NCBI GenBank assembly: GCA_004431415.1
Contig: QPMI01000424.1
Coordinates: 15,654-79,653 of the forward strand
From: Cyanophora paradoxa CCMP329
Taxonomy: Eukaryota; Plantae; Glaucophyta
Length of the DNA stretch: 64,000 nt
Direction: 5' to 3'
The notes beneath the pieces are model-generated. The model was not told the origin of the DNA and did not search any database. It saw nothing but the letters and a program-made list of their open reading frames with translations. Both the position numbers and the translations under genes were made by a program. Shown piece after piece: positions 11,005-38,506 of the stretch (position 1 is the stretch's first letter; each line of letters opens with the position of its first letter).

Positions 11005-11024
11005 ACCGGAGAAAATAATTTCGG
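11005..11024 (-). promoter_or_regulatory. Putative promoter motif upstream of pPolB
   Basis: Same 20-mer as 5236-5255. Confidence 0.7.
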
Positions 11025-11151
11025 CGCAATCTACCAAATCCTCCTTTTCATACCCTTGTCGCCAATTCTTTAAGTGCTTTTTTGACGGATACGGGGAATA
11101 AAAAGGGAGGTAAAAAATTAATCATTTTTTGCATCGTACGGATACTTTCCG

Positions 11152-11565
11152 CTACGAATTTTTTGCGTTCTCGACGACATGCTTTCGGGGTCTCCCAGCG
11201 GGCTTTTGCGGCTGGGGCTTCACCGGCGGATTCAGCTTTCGTTCCGCTCTTTTTCTGCGTTGGTATTCCCGTGCCTTTTCCCTGATTTTCTCCCGATACT
11301 CTTCATCGTCTTGGTATCGCTGCTGTTTACGAATTGCGATCTTTTGTAGCTGCTCCGGGGTAAATACGGTCGCTTCCCCTGCGGCTAATCGCTCCTGTTT
11401 CTGTCTCTGATGCTTGTTTCGCTGCCTCTCGGCGTCTTTTTCGCGTTTTAGTCTTAATCTCTCCGCCTTCTCCTCTTCTGTGATCACCTTCTTCGGTCGC
11501 CCGGGTCTGCGCTTTTCTTGCTGTGCCGCCATTGCCTCTTGGTTTGAAATCTTGGGTTTCGCCAT
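11152..11565 (-). CDS. Basic Lys/Arg-rich protein with two AT-hook-like motifs
   Basis: RRPGRPKK and AGRPRKH flank a charged helix. Conserved in Element 2. Confidence 0.75.
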   Translation of the reverse strand: MAKPKISNQEAMAAQQEKRRPGRPKKVITEEEKAERLRLKREKDAERQRNKHQRQKQERLAAGEATVFTPEQLQKIAIRKQQRYQDDEEYREKIREKAREYQRRKRAERKLNPPVKPQPQKPAGRPRKHVVENAKNS

Positions 11566-11689
11566 TTACTATAACCGGAGAAAATAGTTTTTTGTCACTC
11601 TGTATTATTTCCCTTGCCCTTATATACCTTTTACCGAAACCTTCAATTTTTGCGCTCGGATCGATACAAGCGCCACCGAAATTCACCGC

Positions 11690-12103
11690 TCAATAACCGT
11701 TCCAGACGGTTCGTTCTTGTTGCTGAGGATATACATAAGGGTTTGTTAAGCTGTCATCGTCGCCTAACGCCATTTGATCCAATCTATACATCGGATAAGG
11801 TGAATCAGCGCGAAAATGCCCTTCCACAAATTCAGGACATGAGCGCCTTCTAATATGCTCTACATGCACGTCCTCTATCTGAGCGGCTTCGATATTAGAA
11901 CTCATAGCCGCGGGCACAGGCGAGGGCGATCGAGATCGTGGGTGGTTGTGATTGTCGCTGTGGTTAGAATATACAGAAAGGCGCCTACCTCCATGGTCTT
12001 CATCTGTAATATCAACCTCTACGGTTGTGTCGCAGCAAGAGTTGTGGCACGTGCTCGTGAAATGTAAATGAAACATTTCGATGCATTGTGTGATGAAATT
12101 CAT
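11690..12103 (-). CDS. Hypothetical protein
   Basis: Conserved in Element 2 and preceded by the TATTTTCTCCG motif. Confidence 0.65.
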   Translation of the reverse strand: MNFITQCIEMFHLHFTSTCHNSCCDTTVEVDITDEDHGGRRLSVYSNHSDNHNHPRSRSPSPVPAAMSSNIEAAQIEDVHVEHIRRRSCPEFVEGHFRADSPYPMYRLDQMALGDDDSLTNPYVYPQQQERTVWNGY

Positions 12104-12152
12104 CGATCCTACAAGGACGCAACGTATTAAATATCGGAGAAAATAAAAGGGA

Positions 12153-12311
12153 ATGAGGCTATTGCTTGCTCGTGTGTTTCCTTATGAGTTGGTCGACCTT
12201 ATAATGCTGTTTATGGAGCCGACATGCCCGTTTTGCAAGGGCGTTCATATTAAGACCCGCTCTAAATACGGGCGGGTTCAGCTTTGCCTTGCGGATATTC
12301 ACAGTCATTAG
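12153..12311 (+). CDS. Small 52-aa protein, possibly Zn-binding (not in the ORF track)
   Basis: My translation: MRLLLARVFPYELVDLIMLFMEPTCPFCKGVHIKTRSKYGRVQLCLADIHSH. It fills the intergenic gap, and a homologous start is at 51302(-). Confidence 0.45.
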   Translation: MRLLLARVFPYELVDLIMLFMEPTCPFCKGVHIKTRSKYGRVQLCLADIHSH

Positions 12312-12991
12312 CGGATATGGCGTTTACCACCGAGCATTGCGGCATAATTCACGGGTGCGGTCGGCACAATATGTGCATATTGCGGGGCGACCGATTGCTG
12401 ACGAGTTACGGCTTGCGCATCTGTCTTTTCCTCCTTTTTAATTTCCTCTACGTCGACTTTTTGCTTTAATCCGAGTTTGGAGATCTCTTTCTTTACGAGA
12501 CCCTTTAATTTCTTGCGTTCGTTATAATCTTGCATCCATTTCTCATAGTTAGAGACTTTCATTTCAAGGTCTCGCACTTTCTCTTCGAAGCTCATGACAA
12601 CGTCGACAGGAACCGTGTGTTTTTGATAGGATCCGCGCTTTTTAAGCTCGGTTTCGGCGGCTTTCGGGACGTCTTGCGTTTTGTGTTGGCTTGCGACAAC
12701 TTGCGCTTTAATTACTTTGTCGGTTGCTTCATCAACAGAGCCGCCTCCAATCTGTGGTTTTACAGTAGCTAAATCCTCCATTTGTCGTTTACCGCTATCT
12801 TGGTTGCCCTTGTCCGCGGTGGCACTCGCAATAATCGCCTCTTGCTTGGCGACCTCTTCTGGCGAAGTGTCTACAAGATATTCGGGCATTTCGAGACCGC
12901 CACCCGACGTTAATCCAGACTCTTCAAGTCCGCGATTAGGATTACCAGAAGCGACCGTTTGTAGGGTTTGAGGCTTCTTTCGGTAGACCAT
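12308..12991 (-). CDS. Hypothetical coiled-coil protein
   Basis: 227-aa ORF directly downstream of the ATPase. Conserved in Element 2. Confidence 0.75.
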   Translation of the reverse strand: MVYRKKPQTLQTVASGNPNRGLEESGLTSGGGLEMPEYLVDTSPEEVAKQEAIIASATADKGNQDSGKRQMEDLATVKPQIGGGSVDEATDKVIKAQVVASQHKTQDVPKAAETELKKRGSYQKHTVPVDVVMSFEEKVRDLEMKVSNYEKWMQDYNERKKLKGLVKKEISKLGLKQKVDVEEIKKEEKTDAQAVTRQQSVAPQYAHIVPTAPVNYAAMLGGKRHIR

Positions 12992-12993
12992 GA

Positions 12994-13860
12994 TTATCTT
13001 CTCTTACATTTGATTAACATTTTCTTTTTCTTAGGCGAAATTTGGGAAAGTTTGGGGATACCTTCAAGCTCACGTTCAAATTTGGATAAAGTTTTACAGA
13101 CAGTTGTCGAATCTTTGACAGGCGGCGGTTTTGTAGCTTGCTCCTCTTGCTGTTTGCGCTTCTTTTCTTCAAAAGCCGCCCGCTTGTGGAATTTAGTAAA
13201 CGGATGGTCATCGATCATATCGGCTTTTTCTACCCACCATCGCACAGAATACCCGGTATTATCGTGAATGATCGCTTGGTAGCTATGACAGAATTCTTGG
13301 AACATGCGCTTGAAACTCTCTTTATCCATGTTCCCGAATTCCTCGTGATATGCTTCAAACTCTCGCATGTTTGACCAGCTTAGGAATATGATATACTCCG
13401 CATTGCTGCGAATGATCGTTGAAAGCTTTGTTAGTTTCTGCGATATTAAAGCCACGGAACAAAACGTATGACGACCTTGCGCCATCAATTTATTTAGCAA
13501 ATGATCGCGCGAAAGATCGATAGTTCCGGACTCCAAACAATCGTCGAGCACAATGAGAATATTCTTTGGTTTCTTACCCGCGATGATGGCTTTTTTGCGG
13601 GCTTCTATGATCGACTCTACATATTCCGGTTTCCAGGTATCATGCACTTCGTCTGTTATTTGTCCCCAGAAACCGTTGAAACTCGTAGGACAGAAAACCA
13701 GAACATACGAGATCTGATCTTCGAGTTCTTTGATCAGCCACTTTAAAAATACCGACTTTCCACAATTGGTTTTCGCCAATAAGAGAAATCGTGCGGGAAG
13801 TTTCACCCTCTGTTTCGGGTTCCATTCTTCGAGATCCATGGGCGTCGTCCCTTTTTGCAT
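12994..13860 (-). CDS. A32-like (FtsK-HerA) genome packaging ATPase
   Basis: Walker A AKTNCGKS, Walker B LIVLDD, QGRH arginine finger, ISQ and IIRSNA. Start placed at MQKG. Confidence 0.92.
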   Translation of the reverse strand: MQKGTTPMDLEEWNPKQRVKLPARFLLLAKTNCGKSVFLKWLIKELEDQISYVLVFCPTSFNGFWGQITDEVHDTWKPEYVESIIEARKKAIIAGKKPKNILIVLDDCLESGTIDLSRDHLLNKLMAQGRHTFCSVALISQKLTKLSTIIRSNAEYIIFLSWSNMREFEAYHEEFGNMDKESFKRMFQEFCHSYQAIIHDNTGYSVRWWVEKADMIDDHPFTKFHKRAAFEEKKRKQQEEQATKPPPVKDSTTVCKTLSKFERELEGIPKLSQISPKKKKMLIKCKRR

Positions 13861-13918
13861 TCTTTCACTATAAAAACAATAGAAAAATAAGACTGAATGT
13901 GGTAATCGCACGAATTCC

Positions 13919-15232
13919 TTAGCTACTTACTCTTCGGATACCGTCGGCACCAATTATCATTATGTTATGAGCGAGGGCAATGCACTGAATTTGCATCTTC
14001 TGATAAGCGGCACCCGCATACCACTCCTCATTACCGACTCCACCGGCTGTGACACCATTGAATTCGAAGACCAGATCGAACGCCGATGTGCCTGTGGCAT
14101 CGATGTAGCCCGTGTTCTCTTGGTTGAGAAGCGACGCCTTTCCGTTTCCAGCACCGAAGTAAATGCCAGAGAGAGCCGGGTAGCTTGTGCTCTCGGTGAA
14201 AATCGCCGAATTATATTTATCTTGAAGTTCGGTCGCGGCAATCATGAGAGGAAGCGAAGTATTCGAGTAGAGGCGGTTATTGTTGAGTTCCACATAGAAG
14301 CTTACAGCGTTGGTTCGGAGTGCACGAGGAGCCAGAACCGAGAGAGTTCCGTTGTTCACCTTGGTCTTCGCGTTTTGGCGCACAGAGAATACGAGAGTGT
14401 GGATGAGACCCGCACCTGTGAGTTGCGAGAGATTGACTCGCGAACCGGAGGCGGTCGGCTGGAAATCTGTGTGGAGGAAACCGATTTCGTTGTAGGGGAT
14501 CGCGATACCAGTCGATTTAACACGGGCAATGGTCTCAGATACAACCGCCTCATCGGCATTTACGACCTTGCAGATAATGCGGGGTTTCAGCACTTGAAGG
14601 GAAGCGCCATTGTTGGTAACCGCAATATTGGCAACATTGTTAGTATCCTCAATGATACCATCACCAATCGCCTTGAATTCGATTTCGACCACGATCTCAG
14701 AGTTCAGAGCGCAAAGTGGGAACATCGCCTTCTCGAAAGGAGAGGGTAAATCGATTTCGTAGGTTCCACCGACAGTGTTACCAGCGGTTCCGACAAGACC
14801 ACCCACATAGCGAAGTTTCTTATCGAGTTCGCCCTGTTCGGTCATCAGTAGAAAATACTGGGTGACGAAATCCTCTGGGACAACGTAGCGGAATGAAGCG
14901 TGAGAGATTTCGATGCGCTTAATTAGCGATCCAATAACGCGAAGGTAGCCAGTAGTTCCAGCGACACCATTCGTGAGATCAGTGAGGGTGATCGGGTTAA
15001 GATCGAGTTGCAGCGCGAGACCATTCAGGAAATGGTAGCGGGGGATTTTGAAGACAACTCGGTTGCCGAGAGCGCTGGGTGGCTCAGTGTCGGGGGCGAC
15101 CAGAACTCGAAGTGGCTTAGTGCCAGAGGACGTTCCAATGACCAGCGACTTGTTTAGGAAATAATCCTTGTAGTCATCGGTGGTGAGCATAGATTTCAGC
15201 GTTGGGCGCTGGAATTGGCTGTTAGTCTCCAT
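13919..15232 (-). CDS. Double jelly-roll major capsid protein
   Basis: VVFKIPR, IKRIEIS, IDLPSPF..FPLCAL..I.VEIEF, and a C-terminal N+..I..G motif. About 437 aa and adjacent to the ATPase and pentons. Confidence 0.85.
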   Translation of the reverse strand: METNSQFQRPTLKSMLTTDDYKDYFLNKSLVIGTSSGTKPLRVLVAPDTEPPSALGNRVVFKIPRYHFLNGLALQLDLNPITLTDLTNGVAGTTGYLRVIGSLIKRIEISHASFRYVVPEDFVTQYFLLMTEQGELDKKLRYVGGLVGTAGNTVGGTYEIDLPSPFEKAMFPLCALNSEIVVEIEFKAIGDGIIEDTNNVANIAVTNNGASLQVLKPRIICKVVNADEAVVSETIARVKSTGIAIPYNEIGFLHTDFQPTASGSRVNLSQLTGAGLIHTLVFSVRQNAKTKVNNGTLSVLAPRALRTNAVSFYVELNNNRLYSNTSLPLMIAATELQDKYNSAIFTESTSYPALSGIYFGAGNGKASLLNQENTGYIDATGTSAFDLVFEFNGVTAGGVGNEEWYAGAAYQKMQIQCIALAHNIMIIGADGIRRVSS

Positions 15233-15279
15233 GAGCGTTTCTTCTCTTATCTTTGGGATCAGAAAATAATTTACAGGGC

Positions 15280-16206
15280 TCAATAGAAATTCATTTCGGG
15301 CGGTGCGTCGTAGGTTTCGATTTCAAAAGTGAAATAATGCGCCCAAACCCCGAAATCTAAGAGAGCGCCATCATGGTCGATGAGTTTAATCGTGAGGCGG
15401 TCGAAAGATTTTAATTCGCGGAATTCACGAATGAGAGGCACAGTAGTGGACGTGTCGAAGTGGTAGATATCACCATGTTCGAGTTCCTGTGGGATTGGAA
15501 TGCGCATGAAATAACCGTCGACGTGCTTGTTGACTGAGCGAATAAACGGCGCGAATTCGTCAATATATAGCCAGATCATCGAAGCCGGGGTCTCATCTCC
15601 ACGAGTATAGCCACGAATGCGTCGATTGAGCGTCACAGTTCCCGTCCCAGGATTGAACACAAGGAATGTATCGTTTGCAAGAGGTGTAAATGTCTCGTAA
15701 ACATATAGTTGAATATCTTTGAAACCGAATATTGCGAGTTTCTTAGCGATTGCTTTGCGGTTACTGGATTTTCTGAGTGTTTCAGGGGAAGCTTTGGAGA
15801 ACTTGAACCAAAAGTTACTATCACTGAAAAACTCATAGATCTTTGAAGTAGTATTATAGCGGCATTTAATATATTTTCCACCGAAATCTGAAAGGCGAGC
15901 TGCTTCGAGTCTTTCTGTGACTTTTGCGGCAAGGTCGTCTTTGGTGTAAAATCCTTTGGGGATTGTGATGGTCACGAATCCGGAATCCGAAGCTGTGACC
16001 GAGAAATAGAGTTCCATGCGCTCGATGGTTGCACCAGTGGCGTCGATATCGTTCGTCACAGTTGAAAGAACATTCGGAACCGTTGCCTGCACCAGGCGCA
16101 CCGATTTTACGTTGTCATAGCGACGGGGTAATGTCACTACATACTTGTTTGGCTGTGTGAACTCCTCGTCGCGATCATCGCTCGAAAAGCTCAGGTATTC
16201 TTTCAT
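15280..16206 (-). CDS. Minor capsid (penton) protein 1
   Basis: SSDDRD..L...Y.NVKSVRL..ATVPN, IPKGFYT and LTIKLID.DG..LDF..FTFEI. Confidence 0.8.
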   Translation of the reverse strand: MKEYLSFSSDDRDEEFTQPNKYVVTLPRRYDNVKSVRLVQATVPNVLSTVTNDIDATGATIERMELYFSVTASDSGFVTITIPKGFYTKDDLAAKVTERLEAARLSDFGGKYIKCRYNTTSKIYEFFSDSNFWFKFSKASPETLRKSSNRKAIAKKLAIFGFKDIQLYVYETFTPLANDTFLVFNPGTGTVTLNRRIRGYTRGDETPASMIWLYIDEFAPFIRSVNKHVDGYFMRIPIPQELEHGDIYHFDTSTTVPLIREFRELKSFDRLTIKLIDHDGALLDFGVWAHYFTFEIETYDAPPEMNFY

Positions 16207-16222
16207 CTTACTATAATAGATT

Positions 16223-17068
16223 ATGAAAAGAATAACAATAAATTGCGACAGTAGAGACCTTGAAAATGGCGTGCTGCACTTGAAAACGCGCCTTAATAAT
16301 GTACGACGATTTCGTGTGCTATCCGCTGAGATTCCCAATAGCTCTTATGTTGTTCCGCCCGATCAGACAATTACTATAACGCTTCTGAACGAAGAGCCCA
16401 CGGTAATCCCCGCATCCAAAATGATAGCACCGATTCCCAGCGTAAACGATTATTATTACGTTGATGCTGATAACGAACGATATCCGAAAGAGAGAGCTTT
16501 AAACAGTGATGCTTTACTCGGATTTGCGGGCGGTTCTTTTAATCCACTCGGTGTCTTCCCGGTTTCCTATTCTCTCGCTCTGTCCACAAACCGTTTCGTG
16601 TTCTCGTCTCCAAACAGCCCGTTTACATTAGAGTCCTCAGACCAGGAGCTCTGTGATTGTCTCGGCATAGAACCCGGAGTGGTTTACGCCAGCACACCAG
16701 AACCAGTGACGGTTCCACTCAGAGATTACCCCAGTCGCTATGCATTTACGTGCCCGAAAATGGTCGACTTTAATGCGATTCCATATATTTACCTTGATAT
16801 CGAAGAGCTCCGCCCGTTTACCAAATTCGCAGCGGTTACAGGTAGACTGAACAATGTCGACGACTCCTATCTATTGCGAATTCAGATGAACTCGGACTTT
16901 GGTAGATATTCCTTTTACCACGAACCGAGCGCAAGCATCCCTTTCGTAAATGTCACATCGCAACTCGATTTAGATCGTCTCACAATTTCGCTTCGAAAAT
17001 GGCGGGGCTCTGTTGCGGATATAAACGGTCTCTCATTCTCGTTCCAGCTCGAAGTGATCACGGATTAA
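16223..17068 (+). CDS. Minor capsid (penton) protein 2
   Basis: DSRD..L..RL.NV..FRVLSAEIPN, YIYLDIEEL and LDRLTISLR..G...D.NG.SFSFQLE. Confidence 0.8.
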   Translation: MKRITINCDSRDLENGVLHLKTRLNNVRRFRVLSAEIPNSSYVVPPDQTITITLLNEEPTVIPASKMIAPIPSVNDYYYVDADNERYPKERALNSDALLGFAGGSFNPLGVFPVSYSLALSTNRFVFSSPNSPFTLESSDQELCDCLGIEPGVVYASTPEPVTVPLRDYPSRYAFTCPKMVDFNAIPYIYLDIEELRPFTKFAAVTGRLNNVDDSYLLRIQMNSDFGRYSFYHEPSASIPFVNVTSQLDLDRLTISLRKWRGSVADINGLSFSFQLEVITD

Positions 17069-17074
17069 GCGCTG

Positions 17075-18568
17075 TCACACGTAGTAGCCCTCGAAATCAA
17101 TTCGGCATGCCGAAGCTACGTTCGTCGAGAGCACCCAGATTACGAGGGTTCTCACAGATCTCGGGTTCGCTAAGAAATGTTCGTCGGGCTCCGCACTTCC
17201 GGCTATTTGATTTGCATTGGTAAACACTCTCGTCGCGCCGGCTTCTGTGTATGTAACAAGCGCAGAAACTCCGGGAGTGAGCTGGTAATCGATCTCAAAC
17301 GTTTTAATATAGTTGCCATTCGCAGCCGGCTTCATTTTTATTGAGGAAAGCATGAACAGACGCGGAAAATCAATGCGTAAATAATTGCCTCCCGACCTAC
17401 TACCTTGCGGCGGGTTTGTAAATCCCACCCACCCCGTAGCATTTGACCAGCGGGCATTGGAGGCTGTGCCGAATTCCGCAATAAAGGCGCTATTATCGAG
17501 CGGCACCCAGTTAGACTCCGGGGGTGCACTTGTATCTGTGCACCCGGACAGATTAATTATGGGAACATCGCCCTCTGAGATATTCATGGTCAGCACTGAA
17601 TACATCGCATTAAAATACGTTTGCTGTGCGGAAACAAAGGTGAGGGCTTCCGTTTCCAAATATTGCAGGTGACTGGTCGTGATCGTATCGAGAGTCATTT
17701 TATCTTTCGGTAAAGGCACACTCAGCTTATAGTAGCGATCGTAGTTCTGATCATCATTTCTGGGTAAAAGTTCCAGTAGCTTTACGTGAGCGTTTAGATC
17801 GCTCGACTCTAAGAACATGCTGAGAATTGGCGATCCTGTGGCGCTTAGCATCCATTGCACGATCCCCCAATTTTTCATGGTGTCATACGAATATCCAGCT
17901 GTCGCTTTATCTAAGTCTTGGACGTGACCCGCCGTAATCGAAACCACGATAAGCTCCTCCTCGCAAGAGTTTCCGAATAAAGTGCGGGCGAATGTGTAGC
18001 CACAAACCCCGGGCGAATTATTTCCGCTCATGCAACCATCGATTAAACAGTATGTTCTCCCGGCGACTGTGACTTGTTTCGGCTCGAAATAGGTGGGAGC
18101 AGCCGAGGTAGCCCTTGCAGCATCTCGCACAAGCATCCCATTAATATCTTCGTCGTTGCTGGAAATAAAAACGGGGGACATTAAGACCGTGTCAAACGCA
18201 GTCACGATGGTGGGTTTATAGAGATCCGCCATGGTCGCTGAGCCGCAGAGTTCCAGAGCCACAGCTTCTAAGTTAGTTGCTTCGTACTTTGGGCGCTGTA
18301 CAATCGATGTAAGCACTCGTGGATTCGCGAAAATCAGCGGTAGCTTTGCTTTGTAGAGCGCCAGAATATCAGTGGCAGTATATTTAGGGGCGCCATCGGT
18401 TCCCTTGATATTCAATAGGAGCGCGATTAATCCACCTGTGGATGTTCCCGCAAAGCAGTCGAATAGCTGTTGGATTCGTTTACCTGTTTGTGCTTCAATC
18501 TGTGCCAGTATAGCAGCCTCGATTATTCCGCGCGACCCCCCTCCACTCAGACATAAAACGGTCTTCAT
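17075..18568 (-). CDS. Patatin-like phospholipase with a C-terminal discoidin (F5/8 type C)-like domain
   Basis: LSGGGSRG, GTSTGG (GxSxG), ATSAAPTYF and IDG. C-terminus W..NYLRIDF..YIKTFEIDY..RIDFEG. Confidence 0.9.
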   Translation of the reverse strand: MKTVLCLSGGGSRGIIEAAILAQIEAQTGKRIQQLFDCFAGTSTGGLIALLLNIKGTDGAPKYTATDILALYKAKLPLIFANPRVLTSIVQRPKYEATNLEAVALELCGSATMADLYKPTIVTAFDTVLMSPVFISSNDEDINGMLVRDAARATSAAPTYFEPKQVTVAGRTYCLIDGCMSGNNSPGVCGYTFARTLFGNSCEEELIVVSITAGHVQDLDKATAGYSYDTMKNWGIVQWMLSATGSPILSMFLESSDLNAHVKLLELLPRNDDQNYDRYYKLSVPLPKDKMTLDTITTSHLQYLETEALTFVSAQQTYFNAMYSVLTMNISEGDVPIINLSGCTDTSAPPESNWVPLDNSAFIAEFGTASNARWSNATGWVGFTNPPQGSRSGGNYLRIDFPRLFMLSSIKMKPAANGNYIKTFEIDYQLTPGVSALVTYTEAGATRVFTNANQIAGSAEPDEHFLANPRSVRTLVIWVLSTNVASACRIDFEGYYV

Positions 18569-18611
18569 TATCTTATATACTTCTTATATATCTTCTTTGT
18601 TTATAAAGAGG

Positions 18612-21600
18612 ATGTCGTTCCTGAATCCGAGACCCGATGCACGAGTAATTAATTCGACCACGCAGATAGAGGACACTGACCAGGTAAACACCGAAATTCG
18701 TGGGTCTATCAGAATAAATTACAATGCAGACCGCGAAGATCCAGTCAGTGGAACACCGAGCAGACCCGCAGCTTTGCAGTTAATGAACGTCGAGAAGGGG
18801 GATCATAAACTTGGAATCGACTTTTTACTTGATGATAACGAGCGAAACAGAGTTGCCAGCATCCAGGCGACTCGGCAGTTACCGAAAACGGTGCGCTATA
18901 ATCGCAGGAACATTCCCAAAGCATTCGACAAGGGTCGCTTAAACTTCTTTATCCAAGATGAAAGCGGTTTCCAAAATGCAGCTATGAGAATCGTGGATAA
19001 TAGCACGCTTATAGCCGGGGTTTCAAACAGACAGACAAAGGTAGAAATTGTTCACGGTTTATCTACAAGTAATTTGACAGCAAGTAACATTACCACGAAT
19101 ACCCTAAACGTAAACTCGCTTAACTCTGAGTCGTTTTTCGCCACTAATGTCGCTACATGCAATCTAACCCTTGATTCATTTATAATTCAGAAGAGCAACA
19201 CTGTTCCCCAAATCACAGAGGGCGTTTTTACAGTAGATCCCGCGAAACCAGTGTTAGAGATCCTCGAAAACGGGAGCGTTGTAAATATAATTGGTGCCAA
19301 TGCCCCGAATGTGCGATCCATAGCTCTTGATAAAACGACTATCTCGTTTGCTGAGGAAGTTCCGACATTTACCACAGAGAAACAAGCACTGAGAACCGAT
19401 CACGTTCACATTACCAGACAAAATGTAAACGATCTTTTGGGCAAGGACATTGTAAAGGCGTTTTTGGAGTTCGAGAGGAACAAGAACACCAAAGATTCCA
19501 GCCAGGATGGAACCCTCACGACTCACACAACCGAAATAGCCGCAATACAATCGGAGATTAATGCACTGTTTGCAGCAGATGGAGCGCTTGCAATTACCTT
19601 AGCCCATATTCTATCGAAAAGGAACATTTACCCCGCGACTGATAACACATACCGAGTTGGTCTCTCGAATCTGAGATGGTCAGAGGTGCATGGAGTTTCC
19701 ATGTTTGCCTCCAATTTAATCCTTCCATTAAATCACTCACTCCGACCTAATCAGATTCTTACCAATGATAATGCACTGATCAGCTACACCGACTATAATA
19801 GTAATCTTTCCCGCTCGGTTTCGCAAACTGAGACCTACACTGTCGAGGGATACCCTCAGCAGCTCGCAAATGGGGTCTATGTCGCTTATGTAGGCAAACC
19901 TACATATACATTCACTTGGGATCAGTTGGGTGTCACAGGTTTCGAGACGAATATACCCACTGTTTCATTGGTGGATCACACTACTTATTATAATCCTATC
20001 TATAACAATAATGAATCTAATAAAGCATTTATCCAAAATGTCACCTCCACAGGGTTTCAGGTTTCGTTTGTCATTAACGAGACATACAATTTACTTATCA
20101 TCCGAAACAACTCATTTAGTTCCGAAGCTACTATTAGTTTCACTCTCACCATCAATTACATTAGCCCTGTATTCGATAGCAAACCCAGAGTAAAGGTTTA
20201 CCGAGATTTACAAGGTAGCAATATCGTTCCTTTCTCACAGAATTTCGATCTTGGGGCGAATTCTTTGAGGTGGAACACAGTTTACTCAATGAATGCAAAC
20301 ACCTGTAATATTGTGGTCGCAGGTTCATCGGCTACTATTGGAGATCTGACCGCCCCTTTCAAAAGGAGTATCTTAAAGAGCTGTATATTACAAAGTCTGA
20401 TTTACCAGATGCTATTTCGTTGGTGCTCTCCCCGACTCCCAGCATCTCATACCACAATGTGAAAGACACCAGTAATGTAGTGCAGAGGGGAAGCAAAGTA
20501 TTCCAGGCATCCGAGATATCAGCAACAACATATAGATACCTTGCAGCGGTTCCAGCGAATTTTAATTTCACATTTGAGACACCATTTGTTTCCCCTCCTA
20601 CTATTGAAATTACCGACACGAATTTGTATGTGGTAAATGATGGGTCAGCTACATCACTTCAAAATGCACCAGCCGGCTACTCTCCATTTGTCGCAACAAA
20701 TATAACAACAACCGGCTTTACACTTGTCGGAAATGCAACAGTGACCTATGCTCTGTCAGGATATCCTGTTGGGTTGTATTTTTCGAAATTTAATCTCTCT
20801 GTTATCCCAGCAGTGTCTCTTGCTCCTCCCTTTACTATCAGTTGGAAGGCAACAGGAACTATTCCACGATTTGACCCCGAAGATCGATTAAAAATAAGGT
20901 ATCCTCTCGATGTTACCGACATTCATACTACGAGAATAAATGGGCAGAATTTCGTATTTAATGGAACCAATGCGACTCTGATCGATAATCGAGTTACAAA
21001 TAATTACTTTTTCGATTCTCGATATATTAATACTTGCAATATTGTCATACAAAACACGTTTGAAAATCGCAGTAAGACCTTAACAGTCACCTTGCCCACT
21101 CACTCGAATGTCTCAGATGGATTTCACTATTATCTTTTCAATCGTAATTACACCTCATATATTCCATATCCTTCTGAGACTGTCAACATGAGCTATCCCA
21201 GAGTCACCCTAACATCGACCAATGCTGACTTCTTTGGATCCACGGACTTTATGACCTTCTTTGCTTTCACATCGTCCACAGATGGTCTCTTAGTTTATTA
21301 CACTTTCAGGTATGATGCTGTTTGGACTCAGCTTGACAGCCACCCAAATACAGATGTAATTGAAGTGGGCGATAAGAAATATATTAAAACCGCTTCCCCA
21401 TGGGTGTGCACTGTCCGGCTCGATGATAGATACACTCCCAACCTAAATAACATTGGAATGCACTCGACTTGCAATATTTATGTGCAAGGTGCAATTTCGG
21501 CTACCAAATATTTCGAGGGTGGGAACTGTGATGCAGCCCATAGGTTGCTATCGAGAAATGGACTCTTTGAGTCATTTAGTGGGACAGCTCTACCCCCTTT

Positions 21601-22318
21601 CATCAGGGACACAGTCTATGATACTACATGCAATATTTGGGTGTGCCGATCTGTGAGCAACCCGCCTGTAACACAGGAATTATACAAGTATCTCGCAGAT
21701 AAATATGGTGCAATCGCAGGCTCATCAACAGGAAATCCAGCGACGGCTCCCATCGTGTTTGCAAATGCATACACAGCGCCAACGTCGTTAGCAGGGTCGA
21801 CAGAGCCGCCACCAAACGATCCCAATCCGAACCAGCCTAACCCAGATCCCGATTCAAAAGATCCCCCTACAACTGATCCAGATCCGAACACGACACCTAA
21901 TAATCCCTCAAATCCTACAAATCCAGTCGGATCGCCAGGAATGGATCCCGGGACGTTAGTGCTTCTCATTCTCTTGCCAATTCTCGGTGCCCTTGGACTT
22001 GTGCTTGCATACAAATTCCGAGCTTTATGTTGTGCTTGCATAGACAGAACCATTGCAGGAGCAGGTAATAAATACTCAACGCCTGAACTGAATGTGACCC
22101 AAACAGCCGAAGGAGATGTGGGGTTAGAGGTGAGGTCAGCCGAGGGGCATGGTCTTAGTGTAGTGAGAACTGATCAACCACCAGCAAGTAGGGCAGCACC
22201 CAAAAAATCGCGAGCAGAACGAATGGCTGAATCAATAATAAAAGATAATGCAGACTTTATGGCGGAAATGGCACAGCGAGAAGGGAGAATATATGAACAT
22301 GTTCCAAATGTTATGTAG
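18612..22318 (+). CDS. Large fibre/spike-like protein with a Pro-rich linker and a C-terminal hydrophobic helix (one frameshift near 20361)
   Basis: Joins ORFs 18372-20462 and 20420-22318. The Element 2 copy is a single ORF with A5 where this copy has A4. Contains phage-fibre-like P..N.(Y/F).+G....RW motifs. Confidence 0.8.
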
Positions 22319-22356
22319 CGATCCTAATTTTTGTAGTATGCCTTAATAGAGAAATA

Positions 22357-23895
22357 ATGACGGAACCCATAGTAGAAACGACAGTAAAGAATGCTGTATT
22401 GGATAATCAATTTTATATAACCCATGCCAATATACCCAGTGAATCCAATGACCTAATTGTTAATCTAAAAGGCTATGTGATGGGAGCTATGGCTTCTAAC
22501 CTATGGAATGACCTTTTCGGTTACGAGTTTGGTCACATCTATGACATTGCAAATGGGATCGGCTATGTGGATGCGATGGCAGGCACAGCCTTTCGAAATC
22601 TAAATTGCAACTGTGTGGGTGGGTGGATGTTTCAGATCTGTTCAAATGTCGATCCTACTATTGATCCCGCCACGATAACCTTTGATTGCAATCTGTTTGC
22701 CCCCAAAACCATTTTCTCCATCACTTGCAATCTCGTTAATTCGGATGTGCCCATTGTGGCACCTCTCATGGGTGCATCCAATATGTATATTCGAAGATAC
22801 CCTGTTGTTCACACAGGTGGAGAGTATGTGATCCCAGATGATCCAGCTATAATGCCTATTAAAATCGATCTCCCTTCGGATTATGTAGGGAGGGGGGAAC
22901 TGAAAACCGTTTCATTTACAGGAGACTATAATGATCTCATTAATAAACCCACCGCAGCAAATCTACACCCTGTTGCATTTTCGGGGAGTTTCCTCGACCT
23001 TAATAATAGATCACACACCCACACAAAGGCAGAAATCACAGATTTTGCACACACTCACACCAAATCACAAATTACAGATTTTGCACACTATCACACCCGA
23101 GCAGACATTACGAATTTCGCTCACACTCATGTTAAATCAGAGATTTTAGATCTCGGAAATGTTGCATATGTTGGTCACACCCACACCAAGGCAGAGATTA
23201 CAGATCTTGGAAATGTTGCATATGTAGGTCACACCCACACTAAGGCAGAGATTACAGATTTTGCACACACTCATGATTGGAATACAGATATCTATAACAA
23301 ACCTGCAATTTTCTCAGGAAACTACAATGATTTGACCAATAGACCAACTCTTGATCCTTTCACAGCCACCACAATCAGAGCCAACAACACAATGTATGTA
23401 GGATCAGGTCAGATTGTAGAACCAGCAGGACCTATGTTTGAAGAAACATGGTTCTTCCACAATTCGCAGAATTACTTTGATAAAACCTTACTTGTTCGTG
23501 GAAATGCCTATGCAAGAAATTTCTATGCTATGAACCCCTCAAATAATGCGACCATCAGTCGATGTATTACAGAGGCAGATCTTTCCAGTCAACTCAATGC
23601 ATATTTTAATGGGAAAATCCAAGCAGGAACGTATGTTTACACTACTCCTTATCTTTGGGCAAATCCTGACCATAGGTTTAACCTCACTATTAATTTCAAC
23701 AGCAGCTTTGCTAACCCTCCTATTGTAACAACTGGTATACAACACAATGAGACAGCCTACTACTACCGCATGTATGTAAGGCTTAAACAAGTTTACAGTA
23801 GCTATTTCACTTGTGAGCTTGACATAGTTCCATTAAGTTCTTTTGACAGACCAGGATTTCCAGTTACAATTCATTACACTGCTGTCGCAATTTAA
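22357..23895 (+). CDS. Fibre-like protein with HTHTKAEITD repeats
   Basis: His-x-His repeats, SG.YNDL.NKP phage-fibre motifs, and a C-terminal F..SF.NPP.V domain. Confidence 0.8.
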   Translation: MTEPIVETTVKNAVLDNQFYITHANIPSESNDLIVNLKGYVMGAMASNLWNDLFGYEFGHIYDIANGIGYVDAMAGTAFRNLNCNCVGGWMFQICSNVDPTIDPATITFDCNLFAPKTIFSITCNLVNSDVPIVAPLMGASNMYIRRYPVVHTGGEYVIPDDPAIMPIKIDLPSDYVGRGELKTVSFTGDYNDLINKPTAANLHPVAFSGSFLDLNNRSHTHTKAEITDFAHTHTKSQITDFAHYHTRADITNFAHTHVKSEILDLGNVAYVGHTHTKAEITDLGNVAYVGHTHTKAEITDFAHTHDWNTDIYNKPAIFSGNYNDLTNRPTLDPFTATTIRANNTMYVGSGQIVEPAGPMFEETWFFHNSQNYFDKTLLVRGNAYARNFYAMNPSNNATISRCITEADLSSQLNAYFNGKIQAGTYVYTTPYLWANPDHRFNLTINFNSSFANPPIVTTGIQHNETAYYYRMYVRLKQVYSSYFTCELDIVPLSSFDRPGFPVTIHYTAVAI

Positions 23896-23914
23896 CTATT
23901 TGATTAATATAAAG

Positions 23915-24988
23915 ATGACCTCTGTATTAGAGATCCCAAACTATGAACTTGCAGCAAAATCACTACACAGCACCTCTCATGAAGTAGTTGATTCTACACC
24001 CGGGTTTATTTGCACTGAAACTTCAAGTAATACCTCTTTCACAGAGAATAATATACTCAGAGTCAAAGAGATTCGATGTGATCGCAATGGAGGCAAGATA
24101 AGAACCACAGGAATTATTATCTCGAATAAAAATCAAGTTCAAGCAGGTCAAGTAGTCCCAGATTCAGCAGTGTATGATAATGTGGGTGGATTCACCACAG
24201 CAAAGATAGTAACTTTCGATAACACAATAAATAATTCGGCTCTTGTTGTCAAGAGTGGAGGAGCATACATTGGAGATGGGGCAATTGTGGTGGGGACTGT
24301 TACAGCAAATCAATTGAATGTGAGTGGGACAAGTTCATTTACAGGATTGATGACCTTTAATGGAGGTCTATCAGGAAGTATTCAGTATGGAACTCTCACA
24401 CTGTCAACAAGACTAACAACTCCTGAGAGTAACACAATTGCAGACACCAACTTCATTTACAAACGAAATGGAAGCGCAATTGTGACATTACAAAATATTC
24501 AAACAACACCATCAAATAGAGAAGCAATCGTATTTTCATCAGGTAGCTATCTGAAACGAAATGGTTGCCCTCGTTTTATGGCTTCGGCAATGACAGCAAA
24601 TGCAGCAGTAGCTCTTCTTGGTAAAACTTCGGCAAGTTCCTTCCCATTCACAGGCATTCTCATCAACCATGGAAATCGCTTTGCTGGTGCTACTGGAACG
24701 TTTACAGCTCCCATTACAGGAACCTATCGCTTTTTTTTCAACATTGAAACAACAAACAATGATGGGATGAACGGAACCATAGTCCTCAATATACGAAAAA
24801 ATGGTGCATCTTCGACAAACGAGGCAACTGGGACATTTTCATCCTCTGTATCAAGGCTCAATATTTCATACGAATGCATCATCGACCTCGCTGCAAATGA
24901 TTGGGTCAGAGTGTATAACAACTCTGCCACTGGGATTGAATACACCAATCGATCTCACTTTGGAGGAATGCTGATAAGCGCCACATAA
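23915..24988 (+). CDS. Fibre protein with C1q/TNF-like head (A)
   Basis: FTAPITGTYRF, L.ANDWVRV and FGGMLI. Confidence 0.85.
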   Translation: MTSVLEIPNYELAAKSLHSTSHEVVDSTPGFICTETSSNTSFTENNILRVKEIRCDRNGGKIRTTGIIISNKNQVQAGQVVPDSAVYDNVGGFTTAKIVTFDNTINNSALVVKSGGAYIGDGAIVVGTVTANQLNVSGTSSFTGLMTFNGGLSGSIQYGTLTLSTRLTTPESNTIADTNFIYKRNGSAIVTLQNIQTTPSNREAIVFSSGSYLKRNGCPRFMASAMTANAAVALLGKTSASSFPFTGILINHGNRFAGATGTFTAPITGTYRFFFNIETTNNDGMNGTIVLNIRKNGASSTNEATGTFSSSVSRLNISYECIIDLAANDWVRVYNNSATGIEYTNRSHFGGMLISAT

Positions 24989-25010
24989 TATTGTTACTTT
25001 AAAGTAAAGA

Positions 25011-26030
25011 ATGTCCACACAAATTGCTGTTCCTGTTTTCTGTTATGCCGCCCCAAAATTGCATCAGCTCAACCACACAGTAACAGATGCAACCCCTGGG
25101 TTTATTTGCACAGAATCCACAGGAGCTGATTCATTTTCTCAAAATTCGGTGATCAGATGCAAAGAGATACGATGTGATCGCAATAATGGAAAGGTGAGAA
25201 CCACTGGTTTAATTGTGTCAAATAAGAACCAAGTCCAATCGGGATCGATTGTATCAGATTCAGCAATTTATGATGATGTGGGAGGGTTCACCACACCCAA
25301 AATTATTACTTTTGACAACACCATTAATAACTCTGCTCTTGTAGTAAGAAGTGGAGGAGCCTACATTGGAGATGGGGCAAAGATTGATGGGACACTTACA
25401 GCATCTCAACTTTCCGTGACAGGGACAACCACTTTCACAGGATTAGTAACAGCAAGTGGTGGAGTCTCAGTATCAACCACCTCTCAACCCACCATTACTG
25501 CAACTACAAGGTTAGTAACCCCTGAAATCGATACAGGGGCAAATGTTGATCTTGTGTTGAAGCGAAATAGCAATACAGTAGCAACACTTGAACCCAATTC
25601 ATTAACAATTAATACAGGTTGTTATTTAAAGAACAGCTTCCAACCAAGGTTCTGCTTCCGATTGGGATATAATCACACTGCAACTTCTTCGACCGCTCTC
25701 ATTAATTGGGCAACAGATATTGTTAATGTCACTGGATCTTTCACTGGGTCATCTGGAAGATTTACAGCTCCTGTTGCTGGACATTATCGATTCTCAGTTT
25801 ATACCAACTCAACAACATCATCCGCAATTCAGCTTTTTTTCAAATTGAATGATGCCGACCCTGGGGGCATTTCTCTAACTGCTTCACACACAGGCACATT
25901 AATAAAACCTCTTCATCTGTCTTGCATTCTCAATCTTGCAGCTAATGAGTATGTTACAGTTTGGACAGGAACCACAGGCACATATTCCTCTGCAACAACA
26001 TTCTGTGGAGAGCTGATCAGTATAACATAA
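25011..26030 (+). CDS. Fibre protein with C1q/TNF-like head (B)
   Basis: FTAPVAGHYRF, L.ANEYV.V and FCGELI. N-terminus paralogous to fibre A. Confidence 0.85.
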   Translation: MSTQIAVPVFCYAAPKLHQLNHTVTDATPGFICTESTGADSFSQNSVIRCKEIRCDRNNGKVRTTGLIVSNKNQVQSGSIVSDSAIYDDVGGFTTPKIITFDNTINNSALVVRSGGAYIGDGAKIDGTLTASQLSVTGTTTFTGLVTASGGVSVSTTSQPTITATTRLVTPEIDTGANVDLVLKRNSNTVATLEPNSLTINTGCYLKNSFQPRFCFRLGYNHTATSSTALINWATDIVNVTGSFTGSSGRFTAPVAGHYRFSVYTNSTTSSAIQLFFKLNDADPGGISLTASHTGTLIKPLHLSCILNLAANEYVTVWTGTTGTYSSATTFCGELISIT

Positions 26031-26051
26031 ATTTCTCTTGTTATAGTAAGA

Positions 26052-26315
26052 ATGTCGAATATCTACCAAGTAGTTCTTTCAGATACTGAGAAATTGGGAA
26101 TGGAGTTCTGCGCTGCATCTGTTCAGGATTGGATCGATAATGCTGCCCATAACAGAGCAAGAATTGCAATTGATGAGATTGTTCAGAAAGAAATCCACTC
26201 TTGCATCTCAGGTGGAGTTCAAATACCAACCTCAAAGGAAGCGATTGTATTACAGGCATTCCAAAGGGGAACTGTGAAGAAAGCAATTGAATATAATACA
26301 GTTGCTGAGGAATGA
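26052..26315 (+). CDS. Small conserved protein, putative fibre accessory or chaperone
   Basis: QDWIDNAAHNRARIAIDEIV. Follows the C1q genes in all three elements. Confidence 0.75.
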   Translation: MSNIYQVVLSDTEKLGMEFCAASVQDWIDNAAHNRARIAIDEIVQKEIHSCISGGVQIPTSKEAIVLQAFQRGTVKKAIEYNTVAEE

Positions 26316-26356
26316 AGTCTAAATTAATTGGTTTTTCATATAGCATGCATAGAAAG

Positions 26357-27291
26357 GCATGTATCTTGCATAGTGGGCGGGGCGCGAGTGTATTTTAACG
26401 TGGTCTATCGTCGTACTTTGTCGTAAATATGCTAATCGTACATTTCGATTCGTACATTTCGATTGAAGTACATTTCGATTGAAGTACATTTCGATTGAAG
26501 TCGCAAGTTTGTGCAGGTGGGCATTTTCGGCATGCTTGCTCATGCACAAACTTGCTTTAAAAAATATACAATTAAATTCTGTTTAACTCTTACGAGTTTT
26601 GCTATAACACTCTCGGCATTGATAGTTGAGACCATCCTTCGTTCTTTGTCTTTTATTAAACTCACTTGCAAGCTTCTCAATCTTGCAGTGCGAGCATATC
26701 TTCGATTGTACTTCGATTTTCGGACGCGTTTTTAACACACAATGATAAAGGTAATTGTGATACTCTCGGTCGCAGTCTTTGCATCTCCAATTCAAAAGTA
26801 TATTCCCTGAGCTACGCTTTTGCAATGCGTAACTCGATGCCGGTTTTACCTTATCGCAAACATTGCACCGCTTAGTCTCAGGTAGATTTACTTGATTGCT
26901 TGCCATTGTTACATTATACATTCGGGAAGTCTTTAAGTGGGGATCACTTGTTTAATTGGTGGGGTCTACCTGGATTTTTCAATTTGGGTAACTGAAAACA
27001 GTTTGGAAACGATCGGGAACATTTCGTAAAAATAAGGGTCTTACTGTCCTTACTGAGAGATTGGGGGAGGGTTAAAGGGCTTACTGAGAATGGTAAGGAA
27101 TTAGAAAAATGGAGAATTAAAGGGTTTCGTGATTGGTTTCAGTAAGGAAGGGTTAGATGTTTGAAAAATATAGTGTGGCTCAGTGCGAATTTATGATTTT
27201 CGCACTGAGAATTGTGGGAGATGTAAGACCTGCTTATTGACATGGTCGGCTTTTTTTGCGCGCAATTGGTGGGGTCTACCCCCGAGCGAGC
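26357..27291 (-). repeat. Right terminal inverted repeat of Element 1 (935 bp)
   Basis: Reverse complement of 1633-2567. Identical ORF translations appear at both ends in the ORF track. Confidence 0.95.
26583..26921 (-). CDS. Second copy of the TIR zinc-finger protein
   Basis: Translation identical to 2003-2341. Confidence 0.8.
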   Translation of the reverse strand: MYNVTMASNQVNLPETKRCNVCDKVKPASSYALQKRSSGNILLNWRCKDCDREYHNYLYHCVLKTRPKIEVQSKICSHCKIEKLASEFNKRQRTKDGLNYQCRECYSKTRKS

Positions 27292-36174: not shown

Positions 36175-37112
36175 GCTCGCTTGCAGGTAAGCACCACCAA
36201 TTGCGCGCCCTCTTCTTTCTTTCCCCACTACCATTCTCAGTAAGCCCATTATCCATTTTCAAATTTCTCAGTAAGGCTCAGTAACAAATCATAAATTAGC
36301 ACTGTATTTTTCAAACATCTAACTCCTCCTTACTGAAACCAATCACAAAAACCTACATATAATCTTCTCTCTAATCCCTTACCATTTTCAGTAAGCCTTT
36401 ATTCCGCCTTCCGATCTCTCAGTAAGGACAGTAAGACCCTATTTTTTGCGTAATGTTCCTGATCCTTGTCGAACTGTTTTCAGTAGTCCAATTTGAAAAA
36501 TCAAGGTGAGCCCCACCGATAGGTTAAATTAACTTATATAGTGCGTATATCCCCACTTAAAGATTTCCCACTATACAAGTATAAAGATGCCGGGTAATCA
36601 GCTCCCCTTACCTAAAAGTAAACTGTGCAATGTGTGCAAAGAGGTCAAGCCTGCATCGTGGTTCCCTTTGCGCAAGTGCAAGTCGGGAAATATAACATTA
36701 TATTGGAGATGCATAGAGTGCCACCGTGACTATCAAAATGATCACTATCACAATGTCTTAAAAACGCGTCCGAAAATCGAAGTACAATCGAAGATATGCC
36801 CGGATTGCAAGATTGAGAAGCCTGCAAGCGAGTATAATAAAAAGCAAAGTACGAAGGATGGTCTCTACTATAAATGCCGACAGTGTTATAGTGAGACTCG
36901 GACGAGCTAATTTATGATTTTAAAATGAGATTTATATTTTTTAAAGCAAGTTTGTGCATGAGCAAGCATGCCGAAAATGCCCACCTGCACAAACTTGCGA
37001 CTTCAATCGAAATGTACGAATCGAAATGTACGATTAGCATATTTACGACAAAGTACGACGATAGACCACGTTAAAATACACTCGCGCCCCGCCCACTATG
37101 CAAGATACATGC
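36175..37112 (+). repeat. Terminal repeat region of Element 2 (partner not in window)
   Basis: Homologous to the Element 1 TIR: inner part of about 170 bp nearly identical, outer part diverged. Confidence 0.8.
36587..36910 (+). CDS. TIR zinc-finger protein (Element 2 allele)
   Basis: Clear homologue of 2003-2341 with all CxxC pairs kept. Confidence 0.8.
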   Translation: MPGNQLPLPKSKLCNVCKEVKPASWFPLRKCKSGNITLYWRCIECHRDYQNDHYHNVLKTRPKIEVQSKICPDCKIEKPASEYNKKQSTKDGLYYKCRQCYSETRTS

Positions 37113-37207
37113 CTTTCTTATGCATGATCTATGAAAAATAACAATAAACCCAGTCGTCAGACAAGCTGCCTTGGCTGCGCCTCTCTCATTCTTCGAATTC
37201 GAATTCT

Positions 37208-37471
37208 TTACATAGGAGCACTCACAGGAATTTCGCTTGCCTTTCGAACAGTCCCCCTTGCAAATGCTTGCTCTACAATCGCTTCCTTTGTGAGTGGAAT
37301 CGGAATTCCAGCGGCAATACACGATTTAACTTCTTTGTCCACAATCTCATCAATCGCAATTCTCGCCCGATTATGAGCAGCATTATCGATCCAATCCTGA
37401 ACAGAGTAGGCACAGTATTCCATTCCCAGTTTTTCAGTATCAGTTAGAACCACTTGGTAGATGTTCGACAT
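37208..37471 (-). CDS. Small fibre-associated protein
   Basis: Homologue of 26052-26315. Confidence 0.75.
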   Translation of the reverse strand: MSNIYQVVLTDTEKLGMEYCAYSVQDWIDNAAHNRARIAIDEIVDKEVKSCIAAGIPIPLTKEAIVEQAFARGTVRKASEIPVSAPM

Positions 37472-37480
37472 TCTTTTACT

Positions 37481-38506
37481 CTATGTTGCAGAAATTAATT
37501 CACCAGTAAATAAACAATTTGCATGAGTGGTTGCACCAAAAATAGCACCGCTATTGAGGTAGAACCTTATTGTATCATAACCGGCTAATATAGTTATAAT
37601 GGAAAATCCAAATTGCCTTGCAACTGATGTTGTTCCGATTGCATCAGAGTATGCTTGCACAACAACACTCTCAATATCTATATTATTCCTTTTCAATTGC
37701 ATAACAGTATCTGAGGTATTTTCAGTTGTCAGACCTGTAAATGTAAATCTGTAATGTCCAGGAACAGGAGCTGTAAACACACCAGTGTCTCTATCCATAT
37801 GATTTCCATTGTTGACCCAGTTATATGGAAAACTTGTTATGTATCCAGCTGTGGTTATAGAATTATTAATACTAACACAGAATCGTGGATGATTTGGGGT
37901 AGAAAGATAGGAATTGGTTCCATTTACACTGAATCCATTATAGCTATACTGAGTGCTGTTCTTTGTGAAAGTTGATGCGAAGGTAGAAGCAATCTTTGCC
38001 CCACCTCTCTTGATCTCAAAATTGTCATTCGCACCCACAGTATCAATAGAATTGGTCTTCACTCCACCACTTGCTGTAAGAAGCCCAGTAAACCCACCAG
38101 TGGTTGCATTCACAGCCCCATAAGAAGTTGCTGTCACTGTCCCATTCACACTCAGTCCAGTCCCAATCCATGCCCCACCACTGTAAACTTGAAAAGCCGC
38201 CGAATTCCTATCAGCCGGATTAAAAGCCGTTTTGGAATCCTGTTGACCTTCATATAGATTTTCTTTGGTGACCAGCCCCGAAGAGATTGCGGGTCGATTA
38301 GATACGATCATTTGAGTAGCTTTAACGACTCCATCAGCCTTGTCAGCTCGGAGTTCTTTGACTCTGAGTATGCTTTGGTCATTAAAAGAATCGGTTTTCG
38401 CTGTCTCAGTCGAAGGGTGGCTTGGAGATAAATCATAAACAGTGTGTTGGACATTGTGGACAGCACTTGCACTCAAAGAAAACACAGGCGTGAATACAGT
38501 TGTCAT
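37481..38506 (-). CDS. Fibre protein with C1q-like head (divergent allele)
   Basis: FTAPVPGHYRF and FTGELI. Only distantly similar to Element 1 fibres A and B. Confidence 0.85.
   Translation of the reverse strand: MTTVFTPVFSLSASAVHNVQHTVYDLSPSHPSTETAKTDSFNDQSILRVKELRADKADGVVKATQMIVSNRPAISSGLVTKENLYEGQQDSKTAFNPADRNSAAFQVYSGGAWIGTGLSVNGTVTATSYGAVNATTGGFTGLLTASGGVKTNSIDTVGANDNFEIKRGGAKIASTFASTFTKNSTQYSYNGFSVNGTNSYLSTPNHPRFCVSINNSITTAGYITSFPYNWVNNGNHMDRDTGVFTAPVPGHYRFTFTGLTTENTSDTVMQLKRNNIDIESVVVQAYSDAIGTTSVARQFGFSIITILAGYDTIRFYLNSGAIFGATTHANCLFTGELISAT

Follow-up and report, generated by a model that had tools for sequence, protein, structure and literature searches.

The window analyzed here is a stretch of 64,000 nucleotides (nt) from the glaucophyte alga Cyanophora paradoxa CCMP329 (GenBank assembly GCA_004431415.1, contig QPMI01000424.1, positions 15,654 to 79,653, forward strand), in which three virus-like elements with a GC content of 39–50% lie within host DNA of about 50–68%. 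Our subject is the second fibre gene of the first of them, Element 1 (E1), which joins, at a short conserved hinge, a beginning of the type found in its sibling, Element 2 (E2), to a shaft of the type found in Element 3 (E3), an element that extends beyond the window edge and whose core is distant from that of E1. The parts on which the argument rests are the following (positions are those of the window; aa, amino acids; dS and dN, synonymous and non-synonymous divergence).

1633..27291, E1, a complete polinton-like element, from self-comparison, sliding windows and Pfam
1633–2567 and 26357–27291, E1 terminal inverted repeats, 935 bp each, with a mismatch of 1 base
1627–1632 and 27292–27297, E1 target-site duplication, 6 bp
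22357..23895, plus strand, E1 second fibre gene, the chimera, 512 aa: N-domain, phage-tail-repeat shaft and H-lectin-like tip
22357..22800, plus strand, its N-domain (aa 1–148), E2 type, with an inner identity switch near 22650
22801..22817, plus strand, its PVVH hinge, a 17-nt overlap in which E1 agrees with E2 and with E3 alike; crossover zone
22818..23366, plus strand, its shaft of HTHTKAEITD-type repeats (36- and 54-nt spacing), E3 type
23367..23895, plus strand, its H-lectin-like tip, an allele different from those of E2 and of the neighbouring E3
23915..24988, plus strand, E1 C1q fibre A, 357 aa; start common to E3 (dS 0.30), head not shared
25011..26030, plus strand, E1 C1q fibre B, 339 aa; start common to E3 (dS 0.54), remainder at dS 1.65 and dN 0.23
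26052..26315, plus strand, E1 87-aa gene, found in all three elements
36175..52638, E2, sibling of E1 in opposite orientation, truncated within its own replicase gene
38527..39990, minus strand, E2 second fibre gene, 487 aa; same N-domain, hinge at 39530–39546, other shaft and tip
37481..38506, minus strand, E2 single C1q fibre, 341 aa; 39% aa identity to the E1 gene starts and 31–32% to the E1 heads
37208..37471, minus strand, E2 87-aa gene, 80% aa identity to that of E1
58667..61938, minus strand, E3 long fibre, made up of abutting open frames; 5′ part peculiar to E3, hinge at 59768–59784, E1-like shaft and a different H-lectin-like tip
56265..58641, minus strand, E3 C1q fibres A and B and 87-aa gene, disrupted by many 1-bp indels

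When the window is compared with itself (blastn), E1 13883–22817 aligns with E2 48496–39530 at 94.8% over 8980 columns, and from 22801 onward it is E3 that E1 resembles, at 90.8% (22801–23366 with 59784–59224), 88.0% (23905–24434 with 58651–58122) and 77.8% (24984–26296 with 57582–56272); E2 and E3 share only the 87-aa gene at the DNA level (78.8%). In windows of 60 bp, the identity of E1 to E2 falls from 0.90–1.00 (22360–22779) to 0.52–0.63 (22840–23379), and over the same windows its identity to E3 rises from 0.48–0.58 to 0.78–1.00. Base by base, 22780–22799 follows E2 and 22820–22830 mostly follows E3, and thus the crossover is placed within about 22798–22817. Across the six frames of the window there are exactly three PVVH-type motifs, one in each element (22801, 39546 and 59784), and the motif can therefore be taken as a shared hinge. 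An earlier reading of the letters alone (the sequence-only reading) had described near-identity to E2 up to this point, a discrete switch, and a close match to E3 from 22801 that took in the C1q gene starts and the 87-aa gene, and had taken the E1 gene for an apparent chimera of E2-type and E3-type sequence; the three-way comparison bears out each of these statements, the switch being sharp and intragenic.

What that reading did not mention is that the likeness to E3 is a patchwork: the shafts and the gene starts are shared, and the H-lectin-like tip and both C1q heads are different (57–65%). The tip (23367–23904) is 57.0% identical against a maximum of 57.9% for shuffled sequence, head A 59.2% against 57.4%, and head B 65.4% against 58.5%; between E2 and E1 the tips of the second fibre agree at 27% of aa. 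Downstream of the 87-aa gene E1 is again E2-like (0.88 and 1.00 at 26320–26439), so that the E3-related block measures about 3.5 kb and has E2-type DNA on both sides. Two further boundaries, picked after viewing the data, so that their p-values are optimistic, lie within the anchors themselves: near 22650 in the N-domain, where E1/E2 differences pass from 5/294 to 19/167 (Fisher p 1.3e-5), and in the 87-aa gene, where E1/E3 differences number 2/166 at 26131–26296 against 10/79 upstream (Fisher p 2.9e-4). The shared tail has no gene to itself in E3: it closes, at the 3′ end, a chain of frames that begins at 61938, and the hinge there has neither a spacer nor a typical start context, so that the E1/E3 exchange joins genes that are not orthologous. 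The abutting frames of E3 are likely one gene of about 1090 aa. The reading frame of E1, for its part, is open through the junction, and E1 differs at silent sites from both neighbours.

The short reads carry the same junction. There are 24 sequencing runs listed, of which 19 contain at least half of the words, and run X20 (0.06 of the words, 9 of 30 bins) was excluded from the depth analysis. In run X1, a contig of 122 bp lies on 22735–22856 with zero differences, reaching 66 bases to the left of the overlap and 39 to the right, and the junction asked for by the sequence-only reading is thus spanned by sequencing data and is not an assembly chimera. The depth of this contig is 632, against 81–88 for three exact contigs unique to E1 (a ratio of 7.5); in run X6 the corresponding ratios are 8 for the E1 allele at 22765 and 6 for the exact contig just right of the hinge. 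In both runs E3-type sequence enters at 22800 and E2-type sequence departs before the hinge, behind 22764; in X1 a third tail type departs at 22790, and several diverged tail alleles start at 22800–22803. The E1 allele accounts for 17% and 13% of the depth at 22765 and for 15% and 17% at 22857, the majority letters at these two positions being those of E2 and E3. As for the 1-bp indels of E3, they are likely consensus errors, because in E3-type contigs the frame stays open through the hinge and because the indels sit mostly in base runs (6/7 and 7/8 in two blocks).

The contrast between anchors and tips extends to the family as a whole. In a survey of 21500–26400, the summed depth reaches thousands in three of four runs (X1, X3 and X6) over the anchor bins (22320–22647, 22976–23303, 23960–24287 and 26092–26400), and in the same three runs C1q head A stays at 45–88, the level of unique sequence, whereas a near copy of the E1 H-lectin-like tip (a contig with 4 differences) stands at 19–37 times the unique depth, above that of the junction. 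Contigs of unique depth part from E1 at 24412 or 24581 and return to it at 25007 or 24959 (X1, X3 and X6), which is consistent with other heads on the same anchors. Since junction, tip and heads differ in abundance, they likely move independently. Conserved anchors alternate with variable parts and the crossovers fall at conserved motifs: the N-domain is followed by any of three tails, the shaft is preceded by either of two 5′ parts, and there are contigs that replace C1q head A. The number of shaft repeats also varies among family members (23003–23273), where contig joints skip 103–180 bases or run back within the repeats.

With regard to timing, the shaft shared by E1 and E3 shows a dS of 0.40 and a dN of 0.012, and the 167 bases to the left of the hinge, between E1 and E2, a dS of 0.44 and a dN of 0.04; dN/dS is well under 1 in the shared blocks, a divergence accumulated, to judge from these ratios, under purifying selection. 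Against this dS of 0.40–0.44, the terminal repeats of E1 differ at 1 base in 935, and therefore the insertion of E1 is likely far younger than the divergence, from which it follows that the chimera predates the insertion and that the neighbours are relatives of the parents, not the parents themselves. The proposal that the integrated cluster acts as a library of cassettes finds no support in this comparison (flanks at dS 0.44 and 0.40 against 1/935), nor in the absence from E1 of the tips of the E3 copy; the library, if any, would be the whole high-copy family. A role of the fibre cassettes in host range would fit their domain content, such fibres of polinton-like viruses (PLVs) being read as host-attachment proteins (PMC12220804), and the helper-virus range also suggested by the sequence-only reading, which is without support in the window, has been dropped; in published work helper compatibility is tied to promoter motifs (PMC8547959). 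E1 is the likely recipient of the block, given that a single block exchange suffices and that its alleles are a 13–17% minority on both sides of the hinge. Along the backbone, E1/E2 third-position differences are clumped, with a dispersion of 3.08 that none of 10000 permutations attained, and identical runs extend up to 353 bp, and the clumping makes it likely that recombination has been general, beyond the fibres.

The proteins themselves can be described in part. The second fibre gene of E1 matches the phage-tail repeat (PF12789, E 4.7e-8) and, under the curated cut-off, H-lectin (PF09458, E 4.3e-4); the C1q domains score over their cut-off. These matches, together with PMC12220804, suggest that the tips would bind cell-surface receptors. 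A distant homologue of the N-domain (P0122, 41% identity), the sole credible one of three HMMER hits, has N-domain, PV motif, shaft and H-lectin-like tip all as in E1. Beyond it, none of 16 pattern hits to the N-domain in viral contigs and none of 134 hits to alignment A1 in metagenome contigs was confirmed, no relative was found among 129 candidates for the C1q gene start, and PDB sequence searches with alignments A1 and A2 gave no match. A search with the fibre returned 408 hits; among the 120 matches listed all are partial, most cover at most one third of the query, and many have a phage-tail repeat. Genes with a C1q-fibre-type start number four in E3, two in E1 and one in E2, two of those in E3 lying at 54957–56200, downstream of the 87-aa gene.

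All this leads to the reading we hold to be fairly probable, that recombination at conserved anchors has reshuffled old fibre alleles within a high-copy polinton-like family, with the tips as predicted receptor binders. The anchors (N-domain, PVVH hinge, repeat shaft, C1q gene starts and 87-aa gene) would alternate with divergent tips, and homologous and near-homologous recombination between replicating members of the family would reassort the alleles. An E2-type genome would have acquired a block of 3.5 kb from the E3 family, one crossover lying at the hinge and the other close to where the 87-aa gene ends, giving rise to E1; this recombinant would then have been replicated and re-integrated several times, and its tips swapped again independently. 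Each crossover would have joined two genomes during their replication in the same cell, at domain borders where some homology was left, and selection would have retained the products with intact domains. For partners, the many resident copies could have sufficed upon co-reactivation: a giant virus has been described that reactivates several integrated PLVs in Tetraselmis (bioRxiv 10.1101/2025.10.09.676808).

Several points weigh against this reading. The direction is not proven, as dS is alike on both sides of the hinge (0.44 and 0.40), and the layout of P0122, which is that of E1, implies that the E1 layout is ancestral and the E3 fusion itself derived. The clumping of third-position differences could stem in part from varying constraint. 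Depth is not copy number, and the depth ratios, from which the copy numbers would be read, assume that the E1-unique pieces are single-copy; the catalogue of alleles across genomic copies is indirect, and a contig bridging the hinge is present in at least one of two runs, among the 16 pieces listed of 67. Finally, two structure predictions are unusable (pLDDT 35 and 30) and the H-lectin matches of the tips fall under the curated cut-off.

The similarity in dS on either side of the hinge could also mean the same recombination in the reverse direction, the E1 gene being native, the E3 family having captured its block from an E1-like virus, and E2 having separately replaced its own. P0122 shows that N-domain, PV motif, shaft and tip are an old architecture, and in E3, where the N-domain is missing, the tail belongs to the long fibre; even so, we regard this as unlikely, because it requires two exchanges of blocks whose ends match, where a single exchange would otherwise do, and because E1 alleles are in the minority to the left and to the right of the hinge, where several diverged tail alleles begin (22800–22803). 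Another possibility concerns the origin of the partners. The silent copies throughout the genome could be a template store from which a reactivated genome takes fibre cassettes by gene conversion, as in the archives of antigenic variation, and in its favor are a high-copy family with many tip alleles within one genome, the near-identical patch of 166 bp between the otherwise diverged E1 and E3, and the runs of up to 353 bp identical in E1 and E2. Nevertheless, conversion in one direction from silent cassettes into an active copy would call for near-identical donors, and among the copies compared, those of the neighbours, the flanks stand at dS 0.40–0.44 (the main blocks at 0.3–0.5) apart from that patch; no dedicated site or enzyme was found, and an integrated template cannot be distinguished in these data from a co-replicating one, so that this too seems improbable to us. 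The related claim that fibre tips are heritably archived in the integrated copies, from which a reactivated virus draws them via fixed hinge points, is put forward as doubtful, if slightly less so.

An exchange in place between the three neighbours of the cluster is suggested by their proximity, their complementary matches and the one patch with 2/166 differences, but it is already largely refuted and very unlikely when flanks at dS 0.40–0.44 are set against terminal repeats at 1/935, when the tips are not shared with the neighbour, and when the junction, at about 7 times the unique depth, must be present at other loci. Variable tips on constant anchors might recall a dedicated diversifier, be it a diversity-generating retroelement, an invertase or a shufflon. 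This is largely refuted within the window and is hardly to be believed: the Pfam scan of 62 frames and proteins of the window contains no reverse transcriptase or invertase, self-comparison yields no pair of template and variable repeats, no inverted repeats were found flanking the fibre parts, the heads have diverged deeply and mostly silently, and the nine switch points have no site in common (mean common word 6.25, against 6.06 at random). Least credible of all is the assembly of two repeat copies into one, to which high-copy repeats and the many 1-bp indels of E3, a sign of imperfect assembly here, would lend themselves; it is contradicted by the exact contig across the junction, by the silent-site differences from both neighbours and by the open frame. 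The preferred reading remains recombination at conserved anchors between members of the high-copy family, with crossovers that would have occurred during viral replication, for instance on co-reactivation in one cell.

As to the kinship of these elements with polinton-like viruses, E1 has genes for an integrase of the rve type, an A32 ATPase, a putative large replicase, a patatin and the fibres, whose parts are phage-tail repeats, an H-lectin-like tip and the heads of C1q type. The A32-like packaging ATPase matches PF04665 (E 1.7e-10, on 12994–13860), and the integrase (rve, E 1.3e-13) accompanies the 935-bp terminal inverted repeats and the 6-bp target-site duplication. The candidate for a double jelly-roll major capsid protein (437 aa) is such by size and position only; it has one unnamed homologue, was without match in Pfam and PDB sequence searches, gave a single hit in viral contigs that was not confirmed, and its predicted fold (pLDDT 30) is unusable. 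As candidates for the minor capsid protein (penton) there are two paralogous genes of 308 and 281 aa (29% aa identity over 94 residues), with a weak match to DUF5901. The replicase gene, of 1439 aa, has weak matches to superfamily-1 helicases (E 7e-4 to 9e-3) and no PolB match in Pfam. It presumably contains PolB-like motifs. In the host flanks and E3 fragments, none of 23 sequences matched Pfam. Between E1 and E3 the cores agree at 47% of aa in the patatin, 30% in the start of the long fibre and 39% in S-adenosylmethionine decarboxylase.

Other features accompany these genes. Over the capsid candidate (13919–15273), E1 and E2 are at a dS of 0.05 with identical runs of 350 bp, the long fibre being at about 0.2, which suggests a recent swapping of capsid-gene segments. 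Between capsid candidate and ATPase, E2 has an insertion of 1 kb (48496–49531) that has no counterpart in E1 and is flanked by a short repeat; the encoded protein has Cys-rich repeats and is nuclease-like at its end (weak DUF2726 match), and the insertion, likely a mobile endonuclease, has a resembling fragment in E3 at 54011–54514. E2 ends about 170 bases into its replicase gene, followed by AT-rich DNA (52638–53800) with a direct repeat of 140 bp (53164–53303 and 53346–53484); E3 may be nested in E2, or there may be an assembly join, the other end lying beyond the window. Genes for S-adenosylmethionine decarboxylase are found in E1 (4490–4882) and E3 (53834–54229), with 39% aa identity to each other, and a Dam-like methylase in E1 (2618–3427). 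The patatin genes of E1 (17075–18568) and E3 (61982–63533) bear a C-terminal extension, for which the E3 copy has a match to the F5/8 discoidin family (E 2.5e-6); identity between the two elements is 47% in the patatin part and 25% in the extension. The long fibre of E1 (18612–22318), split by a 1-bp difference within an A run, and that of E2 (40020–43739; 1239 aa) end in a Pro/Asn-rich linker and a hydrophobic stretch that resembles a membrane anchor, unusual for a capsid fibre, the H-lectin-like match being internal.

The principle that parts of fibres are exchanged is already known from T-even phages and adenoviruses (the comparisons that follow refer to the portions of the published texts available). 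In the T-even adhesins exchanges occur near conserved motifs (PMC3157838), and the tail-fibre and gp38 adhesins resemble the present fibres in having conserved anchors and variable parts for specificity, the library being the population; here, in contrast, the virus is eukaryotic and integrated, its alleles are together in one host genome, and effects on host range, proven in T-even phages, would be deduced from domain content. In human adenovirus D, regions of fibre, penton and hexon recombine (PMC3648800), old alleles of surface proteins being swapped, as here, via homologous recombination in conserved flanks, which requires two genomes per cell; adenoviruses must coinfect for this, whereas here many copies are already resident, and the E1/E3 exchange joins lineages with cores 30–47% identical in protein and genes that are not orthologous. 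Closer relatives are the endogenous PLVs of protists, which share with E1 fibres with phage-tail repeats (PTR), an rve integrase and 6-bp target duplications (PMC12220804); that paper includes one fusion of PTR with a C-terminal H_lectin in a PLV of Cyanophora paradoxa itself, an architecture that by its match already makes a glaucophyte the likely host, as well as discoidin, fused to patatin or by itself, in PLVs of rhizarians and glaucophytes, likewise similar to what is found here. Its main text gives domain architectures across hosts, reports neither breakpoints at base level nor an exchange of alleles between copies, and has 0 occurrences of ‘C1q’, although its supplements may include an architecture of the E1 type. 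Module exchange with visible breakpoints and clustered insertions is also shared with the endogenous EMALE02 (PMC8547959), the Halocafeteria elements (bioRxiv 10.64898/2026.07.28.741278) and the Polisuviricotina, whose mosaicism includes replicase swaps and tandem integration (bioRxiv 10.64898/2026.10.13.758929), but these concern replication and capsid modules, and ‘Fiber’ occurs 0 times in each text. The hypervariable adhesion islands of giant viruses (PMC13620141), where variable adhesion genes lie between conserved flanks and are proposed to be shared across populations, involve whole genes in free viruses, while the exchange seen here is intragenic and in endogenous elements of 25 kb. No base-level account of the shuffling of PLV fibres was found in the literature covered, most subscription papers and supplements being outside that coverage.

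In summary, fibre shuffling of the type found in phages and adenoviruses would extend to the endogenous viruses of protists, for which the reports consulted concern replicase and capsid modules. The mosaics within such elements need not be errors of assembly, and neighbouring copies need not be the parents. Since one host genome holds the variable units together with their limits and many natural alleles, the binding of the tips and recombination on reactivation become directly testable, and the question of what polinton-like viruses bind and how that specificity evolves could be approached in this way. If the reading of the integrated copies as an archive were true, each reactivation would free new combinations of fibres from a clonal cell line, and the archive would be a combinatorial receptor library for an endogenous virus family, possibly one defending the alga.

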